Shown here: positions 30,908 through 39,357 of the stretch, piece after piece
Layout of the letters: the number at the start of each line of letters is the position of its first letter
Position numbering within the stretch: the stretch's first letter is position 1
NCBI GenBank assembly: GCA_965261715.1
Contig: OZ253471.1
Location: 1,162,861-1,226,860, forward strand
DNA: 64,000 nt
Source: Dehalococcoidia bacterium
GTDB taxonomy: Bacteria; Chloroflexota; Dehalococcoidia; Bin125
Reading direction: 5' to 3'
Notes under the pieces: generated by a model
What the model saw: only the letters and a program-made list of their open reading frames with translations
Database searches by the model: none
What the model was told of the DNA's origin: nothing
Translations under genes and position numbers: made by a program

Positions 30908-32008
30908 ATGACCCAGCGTCCGCCTGACCCGATCCCGTTCCCTCGCGACCGAGTTCAACGCGGCGCGCCTCCACCGCAGCAACAGCCGCCGCAACCATCC
31001 GGTCCGGTGATCTACTCCGCGTCGGGACAACCGATGCGCAGAGTTCAGCAAACACCGCCTGCTCCCCCACCCGCGCCGATCCCGATTCGACAGACCCCTC
31101 CGCCCTCACAGCGAACAGAGCCGGTTCAGCCAGCCGATTCCGCTGAACCGCAGAACCTACACGGACACATTGCGGCCGTCATCGACTCCACCGATGCCAC
31201 GTTTGCTCAGGACGTGGTCCAGCGCTCCCATGAGCTTCCCGTGATCGTCGACTGCTGGGCGCCATGGTGCGGCCCCTGCCGCGTACTCGGTCCAATCCTG
31301 GAAAAACTCGCATACGAGCGCGACGGCCAAGTACAACTGGTCAAGGTCAACACCGACGAGAACCCGCAGGTCGCCCAGGCTCTACAGGTCGAGGGCATCC
31401 CGGCCGTGTTTGCGTTTGTCGGTGGACAGCTTGTCAACCAGTTCGTCGGCGCACTGCCCGAGGAACAGGTACGAACCTTCTTCGATTCCCTTGTCCCTTC
31501 CGAAGCCGACATCAAAGCCGCCGAGGGCTATCGGATGATGCAGGAAAACCAGATCCCAATCGCTCGGTTGCACTTCGAGTCGGCGCTGGAAGAAGATCCC
31601 AACCACGAACCCGCTACAGTCGGTCTCGCCGCCATCCTCTCGCGGATGGGTGAGACGGAACGCGCAGCAGAGCTCGCTCGTCGCTGGCCCGATCACCCAA
31701 TGAGTAAAAGCGTCCTCATGTCATTGGAGTTCGCGGCCACACTCGATGGCTACGAACCGGACGAAGTCAGGCTCGCAGTCGCGACCGAACCAACCGATGC
31801 GCTCGCACGCTTCCGACACGGCTGCCTGCTTGCGCTCGAGGGTCAGTGGATGGAAGCGCTCGACGAGTTGCTGGAGTCGGTGCACATCGACAAGTCGGCG
31901 GGCGACGAAGTCGCTCGCAAGACGCTGCTCGGGATCTTCGGGATGCTCGGCGAGAACCAGCCGGTCGTGGCGGAGTATCGACGACGCCTGGGGCAGCTGC
32001 TGTTCTAG
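30908..32008 (+). CDS. Thioredoxin-TPR co-chaperone (YbbN/CnoX-like) with Pro/Gln-rich N-terminal extension
   Basis: WAPWCGPC, GIPAV, TPR region, C-terminal YRRRLGQLLF. Confidence 0.9.
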   Translation: MTQRPPDPIPFPRDRVQRGAPPPQQQPPQPSGPVIYSASGQPMRRVQQTPPAPPPAPIPIRQTPPPSQRTEPVQPADSAEPQNLHGHIAAVIDSTDATFAQDVVQRSHELPVIVDCWAPWCGPCRVLGPILEKLAYERDGQVQLVKVNTDENPQVAQALQVEGIPAVFAFVGGQLVNQFVGALPEEQVRTFFDSLVPSEADIKAAEGYRMMQENQIPIARLHFESALEEDPNHEPATVGLAAILSRMGETERAAELARRWPDHPMSKSVLMSLEFAATLDGYEPDEVRLAVATEPTDALARFRHGCLLALEGQWMEALDELLESVHIDKSAGDEVARKTLLGIFGMLGENQPVVAEYRRRLGQLLF

Positions 32009-32040
32009 CCGGAACCTCTAGCCGGAGGGCGAACGACCTA

Positions 32041-32287
32041 AGAATGCACTGAACAACTCCGATCCCCGCTTCCCCCCTCTGCGGGGGAAGCTGCCGAAGG
32101 CTGAAGGGGGGTCCCTGCTCAGCCTGCGACACCAGTTGTTCAGAGGATTCCTAAGAATGCCCTGAACAACTCCGATCTCCGCTTCCCCCCTCCGCGGGGA
32201 AGCTGCCGAAAGCCTGCCCCGCACTTGATGCGGGGGCTGAAGGGGAGTCCCCGCTCAGCCTGCGACACCAGTTGTTCAGAGGATTCC
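32041..32287. mobile_element. Two tandem TA-flanked MITE-like elements (32041-32151 and 32154-32287)
   Basis: TA|AGAATGCACTGAACAACT...AGTTGTTCAGAGGATTCC|TA repeated with a shared TA; the second copy has an extra CCCCGCA-cttga-TGCGGGG hairpin. Confidence 0.88.
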
Positions 32288-32616
32288 TAGGCCTCGTCCT
32301 CTTCCGTACCTCGGGTGTACCACTGACGCGTCCGCCACCACGGCATCGGGGTGTCGTCGTCATCTCGCTTGGCCCGATTGCCGATGGCCCAGATGAAGAT
32401 TGCGAGTGTCGTTCCGACGAAAACGAACGGAATGAACAGGGAAGTCGCGAGCGTCGCGTCCGAGACGTGAATGCCATCGTCATCCTCGCCACCAGCGTCG
32501 GCTACTTGTGCCGGTTCCTCGATGGCGTCTTCGCCTGCGGCCGCGGCGCCAAGTGTCAGAGCGCACATCCCGCCGACCACCACTAACGCCAACAGAAAGC
32601 GTCGAACCTGGGACAT
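32287..32616 (-). CDS. Small membrane protein
   Basis: Signal-like N-terminus, acidic linker, one TM segment; start taken at MSQVRR with GAGGGG upstream. Confidence 0.6.
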   Translation of the reverse strand: MSQVRRFLLALVVVGGMCALTLGAAAAGEDAIEEPAQVADAGGEDDDGIHVSDATLATSLFIPFVFVGTTLAIFIWAIGNRAKRDDDDTPMPWWRTRQWYTRGTEEDEA

Positions 32617-32718: not shown

Positions 32719-34296
32719 ATGCACCCTCCAACCAAGTTTTCCCTCCGCAACGCCGACGGTCAGGAAATGCAGTTCCCGCCGCAACGGCCGGTGCTATTGG
32801 CGCTGGTCAAAGAAGACTGCGAGACCTGCAATCTGACCCTGCCGCTGCTCGAAGCCGTTCACCGAGCCACCGACGACGGACTCGACGTCTGGGTCGCCGT
32901 CCAGAAGAGCGACGACATTCCCATACTCAAGGACCGACACGATCTGACGATGCCGCTGCTGGACGACGACGCACTCGATCTGTCCTACGAGACCGATATC
33001 GACACGGTACCGACGCTCTTCCTCTACGACGAACAACAGAACTGCACCCTGCAGACCTTCGGCTTCGACAAGCACGAATGGCGAGAGATCGCCAGTGAAT
33101 CGATGGCGTTGGCCGGTCGTCCCGATGGCGACACCGCTATCGACTGGGACTCCTTGCCCGTGCAGCGACCTGGTTGCGGGGCTCGCAACTACGAGCCCGG
33201 CGTCTACGAGCGGCTGCAAGCGATCAAAAGTGGAGACCTGCTCTCGCGCCTCGTCGATCTCGCAGCAAGAGACGATATCCACGAGTTCATGTACGAGCAG
33301 GGCTACACCGACGGCTTCCCCGTCGTCCCGCCGACCCGCGAGCGCGTCTGGCAAATGCTCCAGGGCACAACGAGAGATCCGCAGGCAGAAGTGGCAATCA
33401 TGCCACCCAACCTGGCCCCGATCACGGTCGAGAAGATCGCGATCAACGCGGTCATGGCCGGAGCCAAGCCCGAGTACATGCCCTCAATCATCACCCTCGT
33501 CGAGATCGCTTGCACCGAGTCATTCAACATTCACGGTGTCCTCGCCACCACGATGGGCGCCACACCCGTCGGCATCTTCAACGGGCCGATTCGCGACCGA
33601 ATCGGCATGAACTACCTCCACGGCGCGCTCGGCTCGGGAAACCGAGCCAACGCAGCCATTGGCAGGGCCTTGCGACTCTGCGCCCGCAACGTCGGCGGCA
33701 GTCTTCCCGGCGGCACCGACCGTGCCACCCAGGGCGGCCCACATCGACTCACCATGAACTTCGCCGAGAACGAGGACGCGAATCCATGGGATTCCCTCGC
33801 CGTCGAACGCGGCTTCGCGCCGACCGACGATGTCGCCACCTTGATGGCGATGTCCGGCGGCCCAGCCACCATCGCCGACGAGCGCTCGCGCGACGGTCGC
33901 GGCATGGCCGGTACCCTCGCAATGTCCATGAGTTGCATGCAAGACCCGAAGTCGCCGATGGTCGACACGCTCGTCGTGCTCTCTCCGGATCACGCCGGTA
34001 TCTTTGGGCGCTCAGGTTGGTCCAAAGATGATGTGCGCGAGTGCATCATGGAAGAAACATCCATCCCGCTGAAATATCGCTTACGTTCAGAGGACGCCGG
34101 CTGCGGCCTGCCTCCCGAAATCGTCGAACGCTTCGGCGGCGAGGCGGCGCTCGATATGCCGATCGCCAAGTTCCGCGACAAGTCCAACATCATCCTTGTC
34201 GTCGCCGGCTCGTCGGCGGCGAAGTTTTCAACAATCCTCGGCGGCTGGGCCGGCGGCGTGTACTCGACCCCGACCAGCGCAAAAATTGGCGCATAA
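32719..34296 (+). CDS. Thioredoxin-like domain fused to an uncharacterised UGSC-associated domain (paralogue 1)
   Basis: CETC redox motif, cis-Pro motif TVPT, linker PGCG, then TDGFPVVPPT, TVEKIAINAVMAG, GNRANAAIGRALRL. Confidence 0.85.
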   Translation: MHPPTKFSLRNADGQEMQFPPQRPVLLALVKEDCETCNLTLPLLEAVHRATDDGLDVWVAVQKSDDIPILKDRHDLTMPLLDDDALDLSYETDIDTVPTLFLYDEQQNCTLQTFGFDKHEWREIASESMALAGRPDGDTAIDWDSLPVQRPGCGARNYEPGVYERLQAIKSGDLLSRLVDLAARDDIHEFMYEQGYTDGFPVVPPTRERVWQMLQGTTRDPQAEVAIMPPNLAPITVEKIAINAVMAGAKPEYMPSIITLVEIACTESFNIHGVLATTMGATPVGIFNGPIRDRIGMNYLHGALGSGNRANAAIGRALRLCARNVGGSLPGGTDRATQGGPHRLTMNFAENEDANPWDSLAVERGFAPTDDVATLMAMSGGPATIADERSRDGRGMAGTLAMSMSCMQDPKSPMVDTLVVLSPDHAGIFGRSGWSKDDVRECIMEETSIPLKYRLRSEDAGCGLPPEIVERFGGEAALDMPIAKFRDKSNIILVVAGSSAAKFSTILGGWAGGVYSTPTSAKIGA

Positions 34297-34310
34297 TCAT
34301 GCCGACAAAA

Positions 34311-34360
34311 CCGAACGGATCCGAACAAAATCGAACAAAGTCGAACAGATACGAACGAAA
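34311..34360 (+). repeat. Five 10-bp direct repeats with CGAAC core
   Basis: ccgaacggat ccgaacaaaa tcgaacaaag tcgaacagat acgaacgaaa. Confidence 0.85.
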
Positions 34361-34425
34361 CTCCCCACACAATCCGCGTAACGCGCGTCGCGACCCTGCA
34401 GTCGGCGCGTTGATGGAGAGGCCCC

Positions 34426-34956
34426 ATGGTTACCCAGATCCTCGACCCCACTGACGAACGAGTGCCGATCAAGCGCTCTCTCACGCCGCGCCCCGAGGCG
34501 CTGCATGGGACGGTTGCTCTGCTCGACATCTCCAAGCCGCGCGGCGATGTCTTCCTCGACCGCCTTGAGCAGCTCTTGCACGAGCGCGCGCCGGGCGTGG
34601 AGACGCGACGCTTCATGAAGCCGACCGTCGCCAAGCCTGCCCCCGAACCGATCAAGCAAGCGATTTTGGAGGAATGCGACTTCGTCATCGAAGCGCTGGC
34701 TGATTGAGGATCCTGTACGACGTGCAGTGTGCACGACACCGTTTACTTCGAACTGCAGGGCAAGCCCAGCGTCTTCGTCGCCACTTCCGAGTTCATCAAG
34801 GCCGCCAGCCACCAGGCTGAGCGACTCGGACTCGAAGAGGTACGTCGCGTCTTCATCCCGCATCCGATGCAGGATCGCACCGATGCCGAGATGCAGAATC
34901 ACGCTGAGCGGTTTATCGACGAAATCCTCGACACCTTGATGGCGCCCGTCGAATAA
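34426..34956 (+). CDS. UGSC-family selenoprotein (Sec at UGA 34705-34707), about 176 aa
   Basis: ORFs 34426-34707 and 34729-34956 are in the same frame; read-through gives EALAD-U-GSCTTCSVHD; hairpin directly downstream. Confidence 0.9.
34714..34738 (+). promoter_or_regulatory. Candidate bacterial SECIS element
   Basis: UGU-(ACGA bulge)-CGUGCA-GUG-UGCACG-ACA; G-initiated apical loop begins 19 nt after the UGA. Confidence 0.7.
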
Positions 34957-35024
34957 CGACAGGCGCCGGATCAGGTGTCCCCTTCGTCTCGTTCCTTCGG
35001 GGACAGAATCGCCACGAACCGTCC

Positions 35025-35106
35025 ATCTCCCCCGTCTAGGGGGGATGCGGTCCACTTCCCACTCTCCCCCCTCTGGGGGGAGATGCCGCAGGCAGAGGGG
35101 GGCTCC
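35025..35106. repeat. Degenerate copy of the CCCCC/GGGGGAGATGCC palindromic repeat
   Basis: CTCTCCCCCCTCTGGGGGGAGATGCCGCAGGCAGAGGGGGG. Confidence 0.75.
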
Positions 35107-35140
35107 CATCCCCCCTACCAACAACCGACAAGGCATTGCC

Positions 35141-36250
35141 GTGCCCGGCGACTCCGACTTCTTTTCACGAATCATCGAAATCGCCGAACACGACGATGTC
35201 TATGAGTTCATGTTCGCCCAGGGAATCACCGACGGCCTGCCGGTTGTCCCGCCAACCCGCGAGCGGGTCGACCGGATGCTGGACGCCGCTCCCGAGCACT
35301 GGAACGACCCCAAGAAGGTCATCGCCGTGCTCCCGCCCAACCTCGCGCCACTGAGCGTCGAGAAGGCAGCGATCAATGCCGTCATGGCGGGCGCGAGGCC
35401 AGACTTCTTCCCCACGATCCTCGCATCCGTCGAAGCCGCCACCAGCCGAGGTTTCCCGCTCCACGCCTCAATCGCCACGACTGCCGGTCTCGCGCCGATG
35501 ATGATCGTCAACGGACCCGTGCGAGAGCAGATCGGCATGAATTGGGGTCTCAACGCCCTGGGACAGGGCAATCGAGCCAACTCAACGCTCGGAAGAGCGC
35601 TGCGATTGATGCTGCGCAACATTGGCGGAGCCAAACCAGGTGAGATCGAACAGGCGATCCAGGGCGGCGGCCACAAGTGGACACTGAGCTATGCCGAGTA
35701 CGAGGACTACTCACCGTGGGAGCCGTTCCACGTTGAGCACGGCTACGAGCCGGACGACAGCGTCGTCTCGTTGATGCCCACGACCGGCGGACCTCGAATC
35801 TGCATCGATCAAACCAGCCGCACCGCGCGCGCGCTGACCGGCTCAATCGCGATGGCCTTCCAGCAGGTCCTGAAGCCGCGTGGCCAGGTCACACCCTCGA
35901 TGTTCGTCATCAGCCCCGAGCACGCCGATGTCTACCGCGCCGACGGATGGTCGAAGGACAACATCCGCGAAGCGATCATGGAGTTCACCGCCTTGCCGCT
36001 GCGTGAGCGCCTCGAGACCCCGACGATGGGTGGTGGCATCAATGAGTATGTGCCCGAGAAGTATGGCCTGAGCGGGGACCAGCTCGACATCCCGATGTCG
36101 AAGGTGGCTCACCCTTCGTTCATTCAGATCACCATGGCCGGCAGCCATGCCGGCAAGTGGACCAGTATCTACCAGGGAATCTTCGGCGACGGCAACCCCG
36201 CTGTTCCACCGCCAACATTTGTGCCCCCGTCCGCTCTCGTCCGTTCATGA
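35141..36250 (+). CDS. UGSC-associated domain protein (paralogue 2, no thioredoxin domain)
   Basis: TDGLPVVPPT, SVEKAAINAVMAG, GNRANSTLGRALRL; GTG start chosen downstream of the repeat. Confidence 0.85.
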   Translation: MPGDSDFFSRIIEIAEHDDVYEFMFAQGITDGLPVVPPTRERVDRMLDAAPEHWNDPKKVIAVLPPNLAPLSVEKAAINAVMAGARPDFFPTILASVEAATSRGFPLHASIATTAGLAPMMIVNGPVREQIGMNWGLNALGQGNRANSTLGRALRLMLRNIGGAKPGEIEQAIQGGGHKWTLSYAEYEDYSPWEPFHVEHGYEPDDSVVSLMPTTGGPRICIDQTSRTARALTGSIAMAFQQVLKPRGQVTPSMFVISPEHADVYRADGWSKDNIREAIMEFTALPLRERLETPTMGGGINEYVPEKYGLSGDQLDIPMSKVAHPSFIQITMAGSHAGKWTSIYQGIFGDGNPAVPPPTFVPPSALVRS

Positions 36251-37337
36251 CCGAGCTGCGCGCGCGCGCCATTGACGTTGTCGACCACGACGACATCTAC
36301 GAGTTCCTCTTCGACCAACATGTGACCGACGGCCTCCCAGTCGTACCGCCAACGCCCGAGCGCGTGGAGCGCATGTTGAGCGGAACCTCCCGTCATCCGG
36401 ATAAAGTCATTGGCAAAATCCCGCCCAACTACGCGCCGGCGACGGTCGAGAAGATTGCAATCAACGCCGTCATGGCCGGAGCCGCTCCCGAGTATCTGCC
36501 CGTAATCCTGGCCGCCGTCCGAGCGGCTTCCGCGGGCCGATTTCCGCTGCATGGGACGATCGCCAGCACCGACGGCATCTCACCGATGATGATCGTCAAT
36601 GGCCCCATTCGTAAGCGAATCGGGATGAACTGGGGTCTAAATGCGCTGGGTCAGGGCAATCGAGCCAACATGACCATCGGCCGAGCCCTGCGATTGGTGC
36701 TGCGCAACATCGGAGGCGCTCGCGAGGGTGAGATCGACCAAACTGTCCAGGGCGGCGCGCACAAATTCACATTGACCTTCGCCGAGCACGAGGATGCGTC
36801 GCCCTGGCAACCGCTGCATGTCGAGCACGGATACGAGCCCGACGACAGCGTCGTCACCCTCCTGCCTGTCATCGGTGGACCAAGAATCTGCGTTGACGAG
36901 TACAGCCGCACCGCGCGAGCGCTGGTCGGCTCACTCGCGATGGGTTTCCAGCGCATCTTCAGCCCCAACGGACAGATCGGCCCATCGATGCTGGTGCTCA
37001 GTCCCGAGCACGCCAATGTCTTCCGTCGCGACGGCTGGACCAAATCCGACATCCGAGAAGCAATGATGGAGCTGACCGCGCTGCCAATCCGCGAGCGTCT
37101 CGCCACCGACCGCGTCGGCGGAGGCATCACGGCGCCAACGCTCAAGCGTGAAGGCATTACCGAAGCGGATCTCGATCAACCAATGTCGAAGGTCTCCCAC
37201 CCTCTCACATTCAATTCGCGGTCGCTGGAGCGAATGCCGGCAAGCGGACCGGAATCTATCCGGGGATCGTCCGGCGCATGGACCCGGACCACATGGACGA
37301 GTTCAGGCCCGTCTCCGCACGGATAGACCTGGCGTGA
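36247..37337 (+). CDS. UGSC-associated domain protein (paralogue 3) with 1-nt frameshift near 37200
   Basis: ATGA overlap with paralogue 2. Similarity to paralogue 2 continues in another frame after KVSHP (SHIQFAVAGANAGK) to TGA at 37335-37337. Confidence 0.8.
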
Positions 37338-37966
37338 CATTGCCAGCCCGGAAGTCGACTGACCATGAATCGCTTCGCAAGCGCCTCGCGCAACCGCCAA
37401 TAGTGACCATCGAGCTAAGTAGCCACCCCATCGAATTGGTGGCCCGTCACGGCCTGTTCTCAGCCAGAGCGCTGGACGAAGGAACCGCCTTGTTGCTGCG
37501 AGAGCTAGAGCCGCTCCCACCGCTACCTCGTGTTCTTGACCTCGGCTGTGGCTACGGTGCCATCGGACTGACGCTCGCTGCGCGCTGGCCGGCCTCGCAT
37601 ATCGATATGGTCGATACAGACATCCGCGCCGTCGAGGCCGCCACCGAGAACGCCGCACGCAATCACCTGGACAACGCAGCAGTGACCCTGAGCGACGGCA
37701 CGAGAGAGCTTCGCGACAGCGCCGGCGCATACGACCTCGTCGTTTCCAACCTGCCAGCCCAGGCAGGGAACGACGCTATCGATCAGCTGTTGCTCGATGC
37801 CTACGACGCCCTGAAGCACGAAGGGTCGCTCGTTGTCGTGGCCGTCAATGGACTCCGCCGCTATCTCCAACGGCGGCTCGCCACCATCTTTGGAGCTGAC
37901 CGAGTCGCCAAAGTCCATCAGGGGCCCCGGCACACGGTCCTCGAAGCGGCGAAACTATCCGCATGA
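37334..37966 (+). CDS. Class I SAM-dependent methyltransferase (RsmC/MTS-like)
   Basis: GLFS...LDEGT, VLDLGCGYG, VVSNLP; GTG start overlaps the corrected stop of the upstream gene (GTGA). Confidence 0.85.
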   Translation: MTLPARKSTDHESLRKRLAQPPIVTIELSSHPIELVARHGLFSARALDEGTALLLRELEPLPPLPRVLDLGCGYGAIGLTLAARWPASHIDMVDTDIRAVEAATENAARNHLDNAAVTLSDGTRELRDSAGAYDLVVSNLPAQAGNDAIDQLLLDAYDALKHEGSLVVVAVNGLRRYLQRRLATIFGADRVAKVHQGPRHTVLEAAKLSA

Positions 37967-39357
37967 CCGCCCAGTCGCCTCCTACGCGTCCCGGCATGTT
38001 GGAGCCGCTCCGACTACGTGAGTTCCGCCTGCTGCTGACCGGCTTCATCGTCGGTCAATCGATGATGCCGCTGCAGTTCGTTGCCTCAATCGCCTGGATC
38101 CAGCTCGTCGCCGACGACAGCATCGAGATCATCATGGTTGGCGCGATCGGCACGATTCGCGGCGCCGGCATGATCGGCTTCGGGCTCTTCGGCGGCGCAC
38201 TGGCCGACCGCTTCGACCGCCGCCGCCTCTTGATGGTCACTCAGGCGATCGCATTCGTGAGCAACATCCTGATCGCCGTCATGATCTGGACCGGCTCCGG
38301 TGGTATCACCGACATCGTCATCTTCTTCGTCCTCACCATCATCGCCTCCTCCGCTCACGCCATAGACGGCCCGACTCGCCAGGCGATCACCCCGGAGATT
38401 CTCGGCCCGCGTCTGACCTCGACCGGTATCGCACTGAACTCGGCCGCTATGCAGTTCGCCATGCCCTTTGCCATCTTCGCCTCTGGTCTCATGATCGACA
38501 GCCTGGGACACGGCGCCGTCTTCGCCATCTCTTCCTTCGGACACCTGGGCGAAGTCCTGATCCTCGCGATGATGGCCTACCGCACCGTGTTCTCCGCGGC
38601 CCATATGGCAGCCCGTAGAACTGGTCGCGGGCAAGCCTTCCGCGACATCGGCGCAGGACTTCGCTACGCGCGTTCCAAACCGGTGATCCTCTGGACCGTC
38701 CTCATCGTCGTCCTGATGATGTCGCTGATCATGCCGCCGACCGGCACGCTTGGTCCGCAGTGGGTCACCACAGTTGTCGGCGCGACCTGGTCGGAGTTCA
38801 GTTTTATCGCCGTCTTCTGGGGCGGCGGCGCGATGGTCGCATCAATCATCATGGTTCGCTTCTCCTGGATCGAGCGCAAGGGAGTCCTGACCGCCGCCGG
38901 CGTCATCGTGATGGCGCTGGGCTTCGTCGTCTTCGTCAACCCCGCGACCGCATTGAACGCCATCGCCGGCAATTTCCTGTTGGGTGTCGGTATGTCGATC
39001 GCGATGGTCTCCTCCAACGCCACGCTTGCACACGAGACGCCGAACGAGATGCGCGGCCGAATCATGGGGCTCGTCTTCCTCGGCATGGGCATCGCGCAAC
39101 TCGCCGGCCTGCCCTTGGGCGCCGTCGCCCAGGTGTTCGGCATGGAGACCCTGTTCCCACCGATGTCGTTCGCAATCCTCGCCTTCCTCGCCGCATTGAT
39201 CGTGCTCCGGCCTGCCATCCTGCGCGCGCGTGTTCCCCAACACCCGGCTTTGGAAACAATGGCGGCACAAGCGGCGACGGCGAGCCGCGTCCTCAACGGT
39301 GCAGCTAGGTTCATCGTCCGCACCGCGCCCAACAAGGCCCTCTCGACCCTGCGATAA
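37963..39357 (+). CDS. MFS transporter
   Basis: GALADRFDRRRL motif A, about 12 TM segments, RGRIMG. Confidence 0.92.
   Translation: MTAQSPPTRPGMLEPLRLREFRLLLTGFIVGQSMMPLQFVASIAWIQLVADDSIEIIMVGAIGTIRGAGMIGFGLFGGALADRFDRRRLLMVTQAIAFVSNILIAVMIWTGSGGITDIVIFFVLTIIASSAHAIDGPTRQAITPEILGPRLTSTGIALNSAAMQFAMPFAIFASGLMIDSLGHGAVFAISSFGHLGEVLILAMMAYRTVFSAAHMAARRTGRGQAFRDIGAGLRYARSKPVILWTVLIVVLMMSLIMPPTGTLGPQWVTTVVGATWSEFSFIAVFWGGGAMVASIIMVRFSWIERKGVLTAAGVIVMALGFVVFVNPATALNAIAGNFLLGVGMSIAMVSSNATLAHETPNEMRGRIMGLVFLGMGIAQLAGLPLGAVAQVFGMETLFPPMSFAILAFLAALIVLRPAILRARVPQHPALETMAAQAATASRVLNGAARFIVRTAPNKALSTLR

Follow-up and report, generated by a model that had tools for sequence, protein, structure and literature searches.

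An uncatalogued protein family is the near-constant partner of UGSC-family selenoproteins

A selenoprotein gene surrounded by three paralogues

We analyzed a 64,000-nucleotide stretch of the genome of a Dehalococcoidia bacterium (Chloroflexota; contig OZ253471.1, positions 1,162,861 to 1,226,860 of the forward strand), referred to here as the window. Near its middle, a gene for a selenocysteine (Sec) protein of the UGSC family is surrounded by three paralogous genes on the same strand, which share a domain of about 350 residues that we call L (Table 1). We found that L is a near-constant partner of UGSC, conserved next to it in the genome and in some species fused to it, and a structural model predicts that the two proteins bind each other with the Sec residue against the most conserved motifs of L. 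Together they probably form a thioredoxin-fed enzyme.

Table 1. Features of the UGSC locus and its surroundings (window coordinates).
Feature	Position	Strand	Basis or remarks
Thioredoxin fused to TPR repeats (PF14561)	30908-32008		Directly upstream of paralogue 1; TIGR01068, 97.9 bits
GC-rich repeat, two to three tandem copies	32037-32300		Upstream of paralogue 1
Paralogue 1 (T-L form, 525 amino acids)	32719-34296	+	Open reading frame (ORF); TlpA/ResA-like domain, PGCG linker and L domain
CETC of paralogue 1	32818-32829		Residues 34-37, in thioredoxin-fold part (about residues 1-150)
PGCG of paralogue 1	33169-33180		Residues 151-154
L domain of paralogue 1	about 33235-34293		
UGSC-family selenoprotein gene (176 amino acids)	34426-34959	+	TGA 34705-34707 = U94 in UGSCTTC
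SECIS-like hairpin CGUGCA-GUG-UGCACG	34721-34735	+	Begins 16 nt after U of UGA; 6 bp
GC-rich repeat, partial copy	35065-35101		Between UGSC gene and paralogue 2
Paralogue 2, stand-alone L domain (369 amino acids)	35141-36250	+	ORF, alignment, homologues
Overlap ATGA, paralogues 2/3	36247-36250		4 nt, read on sequence
Paralogue 3, stand-alone L domain	36247-37337	+	ORF; assembly short by one base after 37199
Overlap GTGA, paralogue 3/methyltransferase	37334-37337		4 nt
S-adenosylmethionine-dependent methyltransferase	37334-37966	+	PF05175 MTS, E = 1.3e-32
Overlap ATGA, methyltransferase/MFS transporter	37963-37966		4 nt
MFS transporter	37963-39357	+	PF07690, E = 1.8e-29

The six genes from paralogue 1 to the MFS transporter are closely spaced on one strand. 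Paralogue 1 is 46% identical to paralogue 2 and 47% identical to paralogue 3 in an alignment, and by tblastn the identity between paralogues 2 and 3 is 64%, so the likeness among the three is not due to chance. A first-pass annotation, made from the sequence alone, had described the co-oriented paralogues around the Sec gene and quoted the motifs TDG[FL]PVVPPT, VEK.AINAVMAG, GNRAN..GRALRL and HGVLATT/HASIATT/HGTIAST; all of these are present in the alignment. It had also placed a thioredoxin fold with CETC and a PGCG linker in the first paralogue only, and both the alignment and the profile match to StoA/ResA described below bear this out.

As assembled, paralogue 3 contains a frameshift at about 37199, beyond which its homologous C-terminus is encoded in a different frame that ends with the TGA at 37335-37337. 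At the matching site the closest relative (L005) carries an additional base, a T, and contigs from three public sequencing runs belonging to three studies have an extra C or T after 37199 (depth carrying the insertion: 8.5 + 4.2 of 12.7 in X1, 2 of 2 in X5 and 49.3 of 49.3 in X6). Because of this additional base in the relative and in the independent contigs, we conclude that the frameshift is an assembly error and that the gene is intact in nature, which leaves the previously proposed end at 37337 correct. The 4-nt overlaps are present in the sequence. For paralogue 2 we take the GTG at 35141 as the start codon, from homologues of 369-376 amino acids that cover 94-100% of its length.

Among five close relatives, one has kept all three L genes and three have kept two, and the last has three L matches, one of them in two pieces. 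The stand-alone paralogues 2 and 3 are lineage-specific, and the usual module has one L gene.

The Sec protein belongs to the UGSC family

The Sec gene contains a single in-frame TGA, read as ..ALAD-U-GSCTTCS... Its product matches NF041046, "UGSC family (seleno)protein", with 155.8 bits (cut-off 125), and PF24696 with 151.2 bits (cut-off 25; E = 4e-44) over residues 4-172, across the TGA. With these curated cut-offs passed over the whole protein, it is a member of the named UGSC family. In a 30-sequence alignment the residues of the motif that never vary among UGSC forms are just U, G and the first Cys, so U-x-x-C is the minimal redox centre. A third Cys (UGSCxxC) occurs in all 75 copies linked to T-L genes (T being the thioredoxin-type domain of paralogue 1) in the survey described below and in one copy of the window's genome that lies beside a stand-alone L gene. 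The USTC-type fused forms lack it, as do two other UGSC paralogues of this genome that also adjoin stand-alone L genes.

The AF2 model of the UGSC protein (pLDDT 94) is a flavodoxin-like alpha/beta fold of five strands; U stands at the N-terminal end of helix 95-110, directly after a strand. Its best Foldseek matches are flavodoxins and flavodoxin-like flavin mononucleotide reductases such as SsuE and MsuE (E = 2.6e-5 to 1e-4), with TM-scores <0.5, so that only the common fold is shared. VIA comparison was equally generic: 186 chains match at a Z of at least 8, the best (8s7v_H) with Z 11.1 and a root-mean-square deviation (rmsd) of 3.2 over 131 residues.

The first-pass annotation considered the system uncharacterised. 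L is in no family catalogue. The Sec subunit, which the annotation did not recognise, is the "UGSC-containing protein" of Zhang and Gladyshev, already named as a family of unknown function ("selenoprotein of unknown function", PMC1976440) and noted in 2008 in one fusion, to a domain called "Unknown_1" (PMC2398784). These proteins were among the selenoprotein families that were most abundant in Global Ocean Sampling data (255 sequences with Sec and 21 with Cys) and were commoner in non-marine samples (PMC2398784). Described as abundant in aquatic metagenomes since the papers of 2007-2008, they were still counted among the largely uncharacterised selenoproteins in 2022 (PMC9312934) and in a review of 2026 (PMC13188914). 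The 2008 paper guessed a thioredoxin-like fold, whereas our model is flavodoxin-like. In their available text, the published accounts go no further than the Unknown_1 fusion: a partner gene that is almost always present, proteins of T-L architecture and a model of the complex are all absent from it. To these accounts the present analysis adds a nearly obligatory partner, a large and "dark" L family, the joining of T to L, a predicted interface that contains Sec, and a link to thioredoxin reductase.

The window's genome has the capacity to decode Sec: it contains tRNA-SeC(tca) and matches above the cut-offs for SelB (326.9 bits), SelA (525.2 bits) and SelD (354.8 bits). The SelD gene (G000:C1:1949734-1950675) has one in-frame TGA itself, so SelD is probably also a selenoprotein. 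Downstream of the UGSC TGA, an Rfam search matched no selenocysteine insertion sequence (SECIS) family and a single-sequence RNA fold was not significant (z = -0.41), so the hairpin in Table 1 rests on a comparison of 42 UGSC genes. In these (consensus CGUGCA-GUN-UGCAYG), five of the six pairs are kept in 42/42 sequences; at the sixth, 41 sequences have A-U and one has U-U. G-C and G-U alternate at one pair (30 and 12 sequences), and there is one compensatory change from C-G to G-C, in a paralogue from the same genome. The codons for T-C-S after Sec are fixed across phyla even at synonymous positions. Contigs from an RNA library (run X19) cover 34383-34874 and parts of paralogue 2; this library may hold DNA or sequences from relatives, and we do not count it as proof of expression.

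L is linked to UGSC across bacteria and fused to it in some

Scanning one genome per species, we found 593 relatives of L and kept 79 loci. In 75 of these a UGSC gene lies directly downstream on the same strand, and all 75 contain TGA at the same position, in the motif [LV][AS]D-U-GSC-[TA][ST]-C; in many of the 79 loci the L stop and the UGSC start overlap (ATGA). An HMM (hidden Markov model) search found no UGSC gene at the other four loci, and all four genomes carry TGA-containing UGSC genes elsewhere. The loci come from Dehalococcoidia, Anaerolineae, Pseudomonadales, several alphaproteobacterial genera, Burkholderiales, Binatia, Vicinamibacteria, Acidimicrobiia, Myxococcota, Nitrospirales and a spirochaete. 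The taxa concerned are mainly aerobes.

The window's own genome has four UGSC genes, each adjoining an L gene, and six L genes; another genome (G199) has eight UGSC matches. Among 301 genomes of the phylum, which are related rather than independent so that we give counts without a statistical test, UGSC exceeds its cut-off in 33 and L is present in 37, and 33/33 UGSC-positive genomes are L-positive. An L match lies within 1 kb on the same strand for 47 of the 57 UGSC matches, which is a lower bound: four L candidates were scored per genome, and two of the ten misses are known adjacencies in the window's own genome. These counts include two unpublished genomes (G042 and G231), without which they are 31/31 and 44/54.

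We also found nine single open frames of 547-625 amino acids, at eight loci from seven genomes, in which a UGSC-like domain is followed by L (U-L). Seven of them have one TGA, in the motif G-H-U-S-T-C or U-G-S-C; of the other two, L090 has Cys in place of Sec, and the second is degenerate, with neither U nor C. The degenerate copy (L092:5379-7046, genome G272) reads ..GFGDTRSGS.. at the active-site position; it adjoins a Sec-containing copy and a gene for an ABC substrate-binding protein, and may be degenerate or regulatory. Among the best 150 of 6,447 representative L proteins (see below), 77 consist of L alone, 28 are U-L, 19 T-L, 14 L-U and 12 tandem L-L, the L-U forms ending at about position 93 of the UGSC profile, which is the TGA site. 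Some apparent fusions were rejected: long "fused" open frames in the 79 loci are in fact overlapping frames of GC-rich DNA, and in two candidate L-UGSC fusions (P0193 and P0198) the junction is garbled, probably because the contigs are frameshifted.

Conserved linkage and the fusions together establish L as a near-constant partner of UGSC, as the first-pass annotation had expected for a genuine complex. Since UGSC almost never occurs without L, an orphan selenoprotein becomes a defined two-protein target for co-expression, structure determination and substrate screens.

The UGSC family is systematically mis-called in the protein database. Of the 120 entries listed for it (in the range P0123-P0240), most are fragments of about 96-110 amino acids ending at the TGA; among full-length entries, P0122 and P0134 have Cys at the Sec position and P0121 has Trp. 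The annotation gap extends to L, whose homologues are named "hypothetical" or, when fused, "TlpA family".

L is a large family without a database model

Even at E-values up to 10, the three L domains of the window match no Pfam or NCBIfam family, the sole match being a chance one of 12 bits. A sequence search of the PDB with a single L domain gave nothing credible (best E = 0.0052, a GTP cyclohydrolase fragment), and nor did a PDB search with an L profile (best E = 0.57). The family is large: a word-indexed search scored 8,000 candidates, of which 6,206 match with E no higher than 0.001, and an exhaustive search yielded 6,447 representatives of 50% clusters, 1,959 of them at E up to 1e-30. A search of the ESM Atlas with one homologue (P0026) returned unnamed clusters only, plus one cluster with UGSC in 16% of its members. 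L is therefore a big family that lacks any database model despite its size.

The AF2 model of L, made for paralogue 2 (pLDDT 85, pTM 0.87), has no clear fold match among the structures that Foldseek and VIA compared it with. The best Foldseek match has E = 0.0057; ring-opening amidohydrolases (Toblerone fold) and class I fumarate hydratase are among the weak matches, with TM-scores of 0.16-0.28. By VIA the best match is chorismate mutase (Z 4.6, rmsd 2.8 over 89 residues), and barbiturase matches weakly (Z 3.4, rmsd 7.1, 176 aligned residues). In these searches the large domain thus matches no characterised enzyme, in line with the first-pass annotation. His, Glu and Asp residues are conserved in it.

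Tandem L-L proteins, about 710-740 amino acids long (P0244, P0254, P0258, P0263 and others; 12 of the best 150 representatives), hint at L acting as a dimer, and paralogues 2 and 3, whose translation is coupled, might do the same.

A predicted complex places Sec against the conserved motifs of L

We modelled paralogue 1, with an alignment of its database homologues, together with a Cys-form UGSC protein (P0122). The predicted complex has an ipSAE of 0.71 (0.73, 0.70 and 0.71 in separate runs), compared with 0.00 for the best of three controls; 58 of 80 solved complexes reach this ipSAE mark, and of 110 mismatched pairs 2 do. The runs share at least 96% of their contacts, and the partner pLDDT is at least 89. 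On L, the predicted interface includes PPT (204-207), PPNLAP (229-235), EK (238-239), IN..M, HGV with ATT (272-278) and RNVGG (324-327), which are the hallmark conserved motifs of the family. On the UGSC stand-in it includes the Sec-equivalent C95-G-S, residues 99-101 (T-S-C), H104, K-P-T and a conserved N-terminal LDPT.E peptide. The model therefore supports the interaction that the first-pass annotation had proposed, and predicts that Sec lies against conserved L motifs. Sequence and profile searches of the PDB found no solved complex like it. The interface residues are mostly conserved in paralogues 2 and 3, which may use the same UGSC subunit.

Could the L and UGSC genes be mere neighbours without a functional unit, or the TGA a true stop between two small ORFs? 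We give this almost no credence. The non-significant RNA fold and the missing Rfam match are all that we found in its favour, and it is contradicted by the conserved linkage, the co-occurrence, the fusions, the hairpin and the predicted complex. A true stop is further contradicted by the curated UGSC model, which spans the TGA, and by the Cys at this position in rare homologues (P0122, P0134 and the fused L090).

A thioredoxin-type domain and the supply of electrons

A family profile of the N-terminal domain of paralogue 1 matches StoA/ResA chains with E = 2.6e-7 to 3e-6 over positions 3-119; taken as a single sequence, the domain matches weakly (E = 0.016 against the PDB; PF13098 at 14.8 bits, cut-off 27, E = 0.036). 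In T-L forms, C34, C37 and C153 are invariant or nearly so and V97-P98 is conserved, the latter within a TVPT stretch that we take to resemble the cis-proline loop of thioredoxins. The domain is thus like the TlpA/ResA/StoA oxidoreductases in its CxxC (CETC) and in profile similarity, and unlike them in being cytoplasmic and fused to L through a conserved PGCG linker, whose Cys is absent from the stand-alone L paralogues. In the commonest module L carries the T domain as a fusion, and many L forms lack it. A second architecture involves the U-L fusions: at four of their eight loci (three of the seven genomes) they lie beside a gene for a flavoprotein of about 310 amino acids that matches the thioredoxin-disulfide reductase model TIGR01292 at 300-311 bits (cut-off 343).

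Because these two independent architectures, the T-L fusion and the reductase-like neighbour of U-L, both point to thioredoxin-type reduction, the thioredoxin electron input suggested by the first-pass annotation gains support from comparative sequence evidence. The U-x-x-C motif and the recurring thioredoxin-type partners fit turnover through a selenenylsulfide. The thioredoxin-TPR protein encoded upstream of paralogue 1 is a possible electron donor in the window.

The same domain raises the alternative of an antioxidant or repair system, in which T and UGSC would act as a peroxiredoxin-like enzyme or a reductase of protein disulfides, sulfoxides or hydroperoxides, with L as scaffold or sensor. 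Precomputed AhpC-TSA and Redoxin matches exist for homologues of the T domain, the host taxa are mainly aerobes, and UxxC selenoproteins are often peroxidase-like, according to the available text of two reviews (PMC13188914; PMC9312934). We regard it as unlikely: L is the larger and more conserved partner, its invariant motifs make the predicted interface with Sec, the T domain is missing from many forms, and several diverged L/UGSC pairs per genome are more typical of substrate-specific enzymes.

The thioredoxin-type partners bear also on a non-redox enzyme (an isomerase, lyase or transferase) in which Sec would be a nucleophile or acid-base catalyst and the thioredoxin domain would only keep it reduced. 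This would suit an L domain that lacks an invariant Cys and whose model hints weakly at chorismate-mutase/YjgF-like and cyclic-amide-hydrolase (Toblerone) folds. The Cys at the third position after Sec never varies, though, and thioredoxin-type partners recur in two separate architectures, which makes this second alternative quite unlikely in our judgement.

Genes next to the module

The first-pass annotation left it undecided whether the methyltransferase and MFS genes, coupled to paralogue 3 by overlaps, belong to the system. Their clusters occur in 4 and 5 of the 79 loci respectively, all from close Dehalococcoidia relatives, so the two genes are not part of the conserved module. The methyltransferase matches no NCBIfam equivalog at E up to 1e-20. 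It reads ..VVSNLPAQAG.., at a position that may be comparable to that of the NPPY/NPPF motif of relatives such as RsmC and PrmC.

These two genes are relevant to a third alternative, the handling of metals or metalloids, in which U-x-x-C-x-x-C would serve to bind or to reduce species of Hg, As, Se, Te or Cu and, in this lineage, the methyltransferase would methylate the product and the MFS protein export it. The translational coupling to paralogue 3, the UxxCxxC motif in all 75 T-L-linked UGSC genes and the conserved His, Glu and Asp of L would fit such a role. Yet the third Cys is lost in several stand-alone and fused forms, the two genes accompany the module in one lineage only, and no metal-resistance genes recur among the neighbours of the loci; we consider it very unlikely. 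The several diverged pairs per genome, together with the weight of conservation on L, argue mildly against both the antioxidant and the metal readings.

Recurrent neighbours in the 79 loci are acyl-CoA dehydrogenase (15 loci), CoA-transferase III (12), SDR (10), TauD-like dioxygenase (7) and acyl-CoA synthetase (7) genes, which suggest a substrate among the small organic acids or amines taken up by aerobic heterotrophs. In eight alphaproteobacterial loci (L025, L028, L034, L037, L039, L040, L048 and L049), selA and selB lie directly upstream of the T-L/UGSC pair, and in a ninth (L045) they are nearby on the opposite strand; the identification was confirmed on representatives. Locus L049 comes from an isolate recorded as Sulfitobacter sp. 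M05, and Hyphomonas neptunium is named in PMC1976440. The alphaproteobacteria with selA-selB upstream may keep the Sec machinery mainly for this module.

A GC-rich repeat of 113-136 nt with internal inverted repeats forms the cluster that separates the thioredoxin-TPR gene from paralogue 1, and recurs as a partial copy downstream of the UGSC gene (Table 1). In the bin 35049-35155 the summed contig depth is about 100-fold that of the adjoining bins, a pattern that a dispersed REP-like element would be expected to give.

A proposed two-component selenoenzyme

On balance we favour a two-component selenoenzyme, in which an L protein of about 350 residues is the catalytic or substrate-binding component and a small flavodoxin-fold UGSC protein contributes a Sec-x-x-Cys centre in the interface between them. 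In the mechanism that we envisage, L would supply the substrate pocket and the substrate would sit at the L/UGSC interface, where the selenolate of UGSC would attack or reduce it. The Cys three residues after Sec would then resolve the product, leaving a selenenylsulfide, which the TlpA-like CxxC domain fused to L would re-reduce; for L forms without a T domain, free thioredoxin and the thioredoxin-reductase-like flavoprotein could do so at the expense of NAD(P)H. We infer the reductase chemistry and this electron path from the gene architectures and the U-x-x-C motif. The window would hold the usual pair of T-L and UGSC plus two stand-alone L proteins, and the extra L proteins may add substrate specificities to a single Sec subunit.

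Several points weigh against this proposal. No activity, substrate or cofactor is known for UGSC or L. The complex is a model built with a stand-in UGSC from another organism, 52% identical to the window protein. The first-pass annotation had raised the question of whether the U/C residues approach PGCG or CETC, and in the model the Sec-equivalent is in the L interface, and the thioredoxin domain and the PGCG Cys are outside the confident interface residues. The L domain has no invariant Cys; where more than 90% of T-L forms have the "MAGC" Cys, the three window paralogues all have Ala. No third gene accompanies every one of the 79 loci, and the recurrent neighbours are common catabolic genes that name no substrate. 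Finally, we found no sequence relation of UGSC or L to GrdB/PrdB, a possible functional parallel.

Glycine/sarcosine/betaine reductase and D-proline reductase (Grd and Prd) combine a selenoprotein with a larger, substrate-specific partner and are re-reduced by a thioredoxin-type system. UGSC resembles the GrdB/PrdB (PF07355) systems in being a small Sec subunit with U-x-x-C at a strand-to-helix turn and a larger partner, and it may work alike. PF07355 is not among the matches of UGSC or L at E up to 10, so neither is a member of the GRDB family, and when hhalign compared the UGSC alignment with three GRDB-like proteins from the window's own genome (a 3-row template), the probability was 1.6% (E = 0.031). 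The L/UGSC module also differs in its mainly aerobic hosts and in having no recognisable pyruvoyl-forming partner, although no search aimed at PrdA/GrdE relatives was made.

A more specific proposal, which we put forward tentatively and think less probable than the two-component enzyme as such, is that L/UGSC represents a new class of Sec-dependent, thioredoxin-driven reductive bond-cleaving enzymes. It would parallel glycine and proline reductase in function but with a catalytic subunit unrelated to theirs, and would act on small organic substrates in aerobic aquatic and soil heterotrophs, with paralogous L proteins setting specificity. If true, this would account for the abundance of UGSC in aquatic metagenomes and for the selA-selB genes directly upstream of the module in several alphaproteobacteria.

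The three GRDB-like proteins of the window's genome are encoded by PF07355 genes on the minus strand (L098-L100; G000:C1:628086-628940, 2965221-2966087 and 2966894-2967763). They are 285-290 amino acids long, have an in-frame TGA in a V-U-P-x-C motif, and make up a second set of UxxC selenoproteins in this genome.

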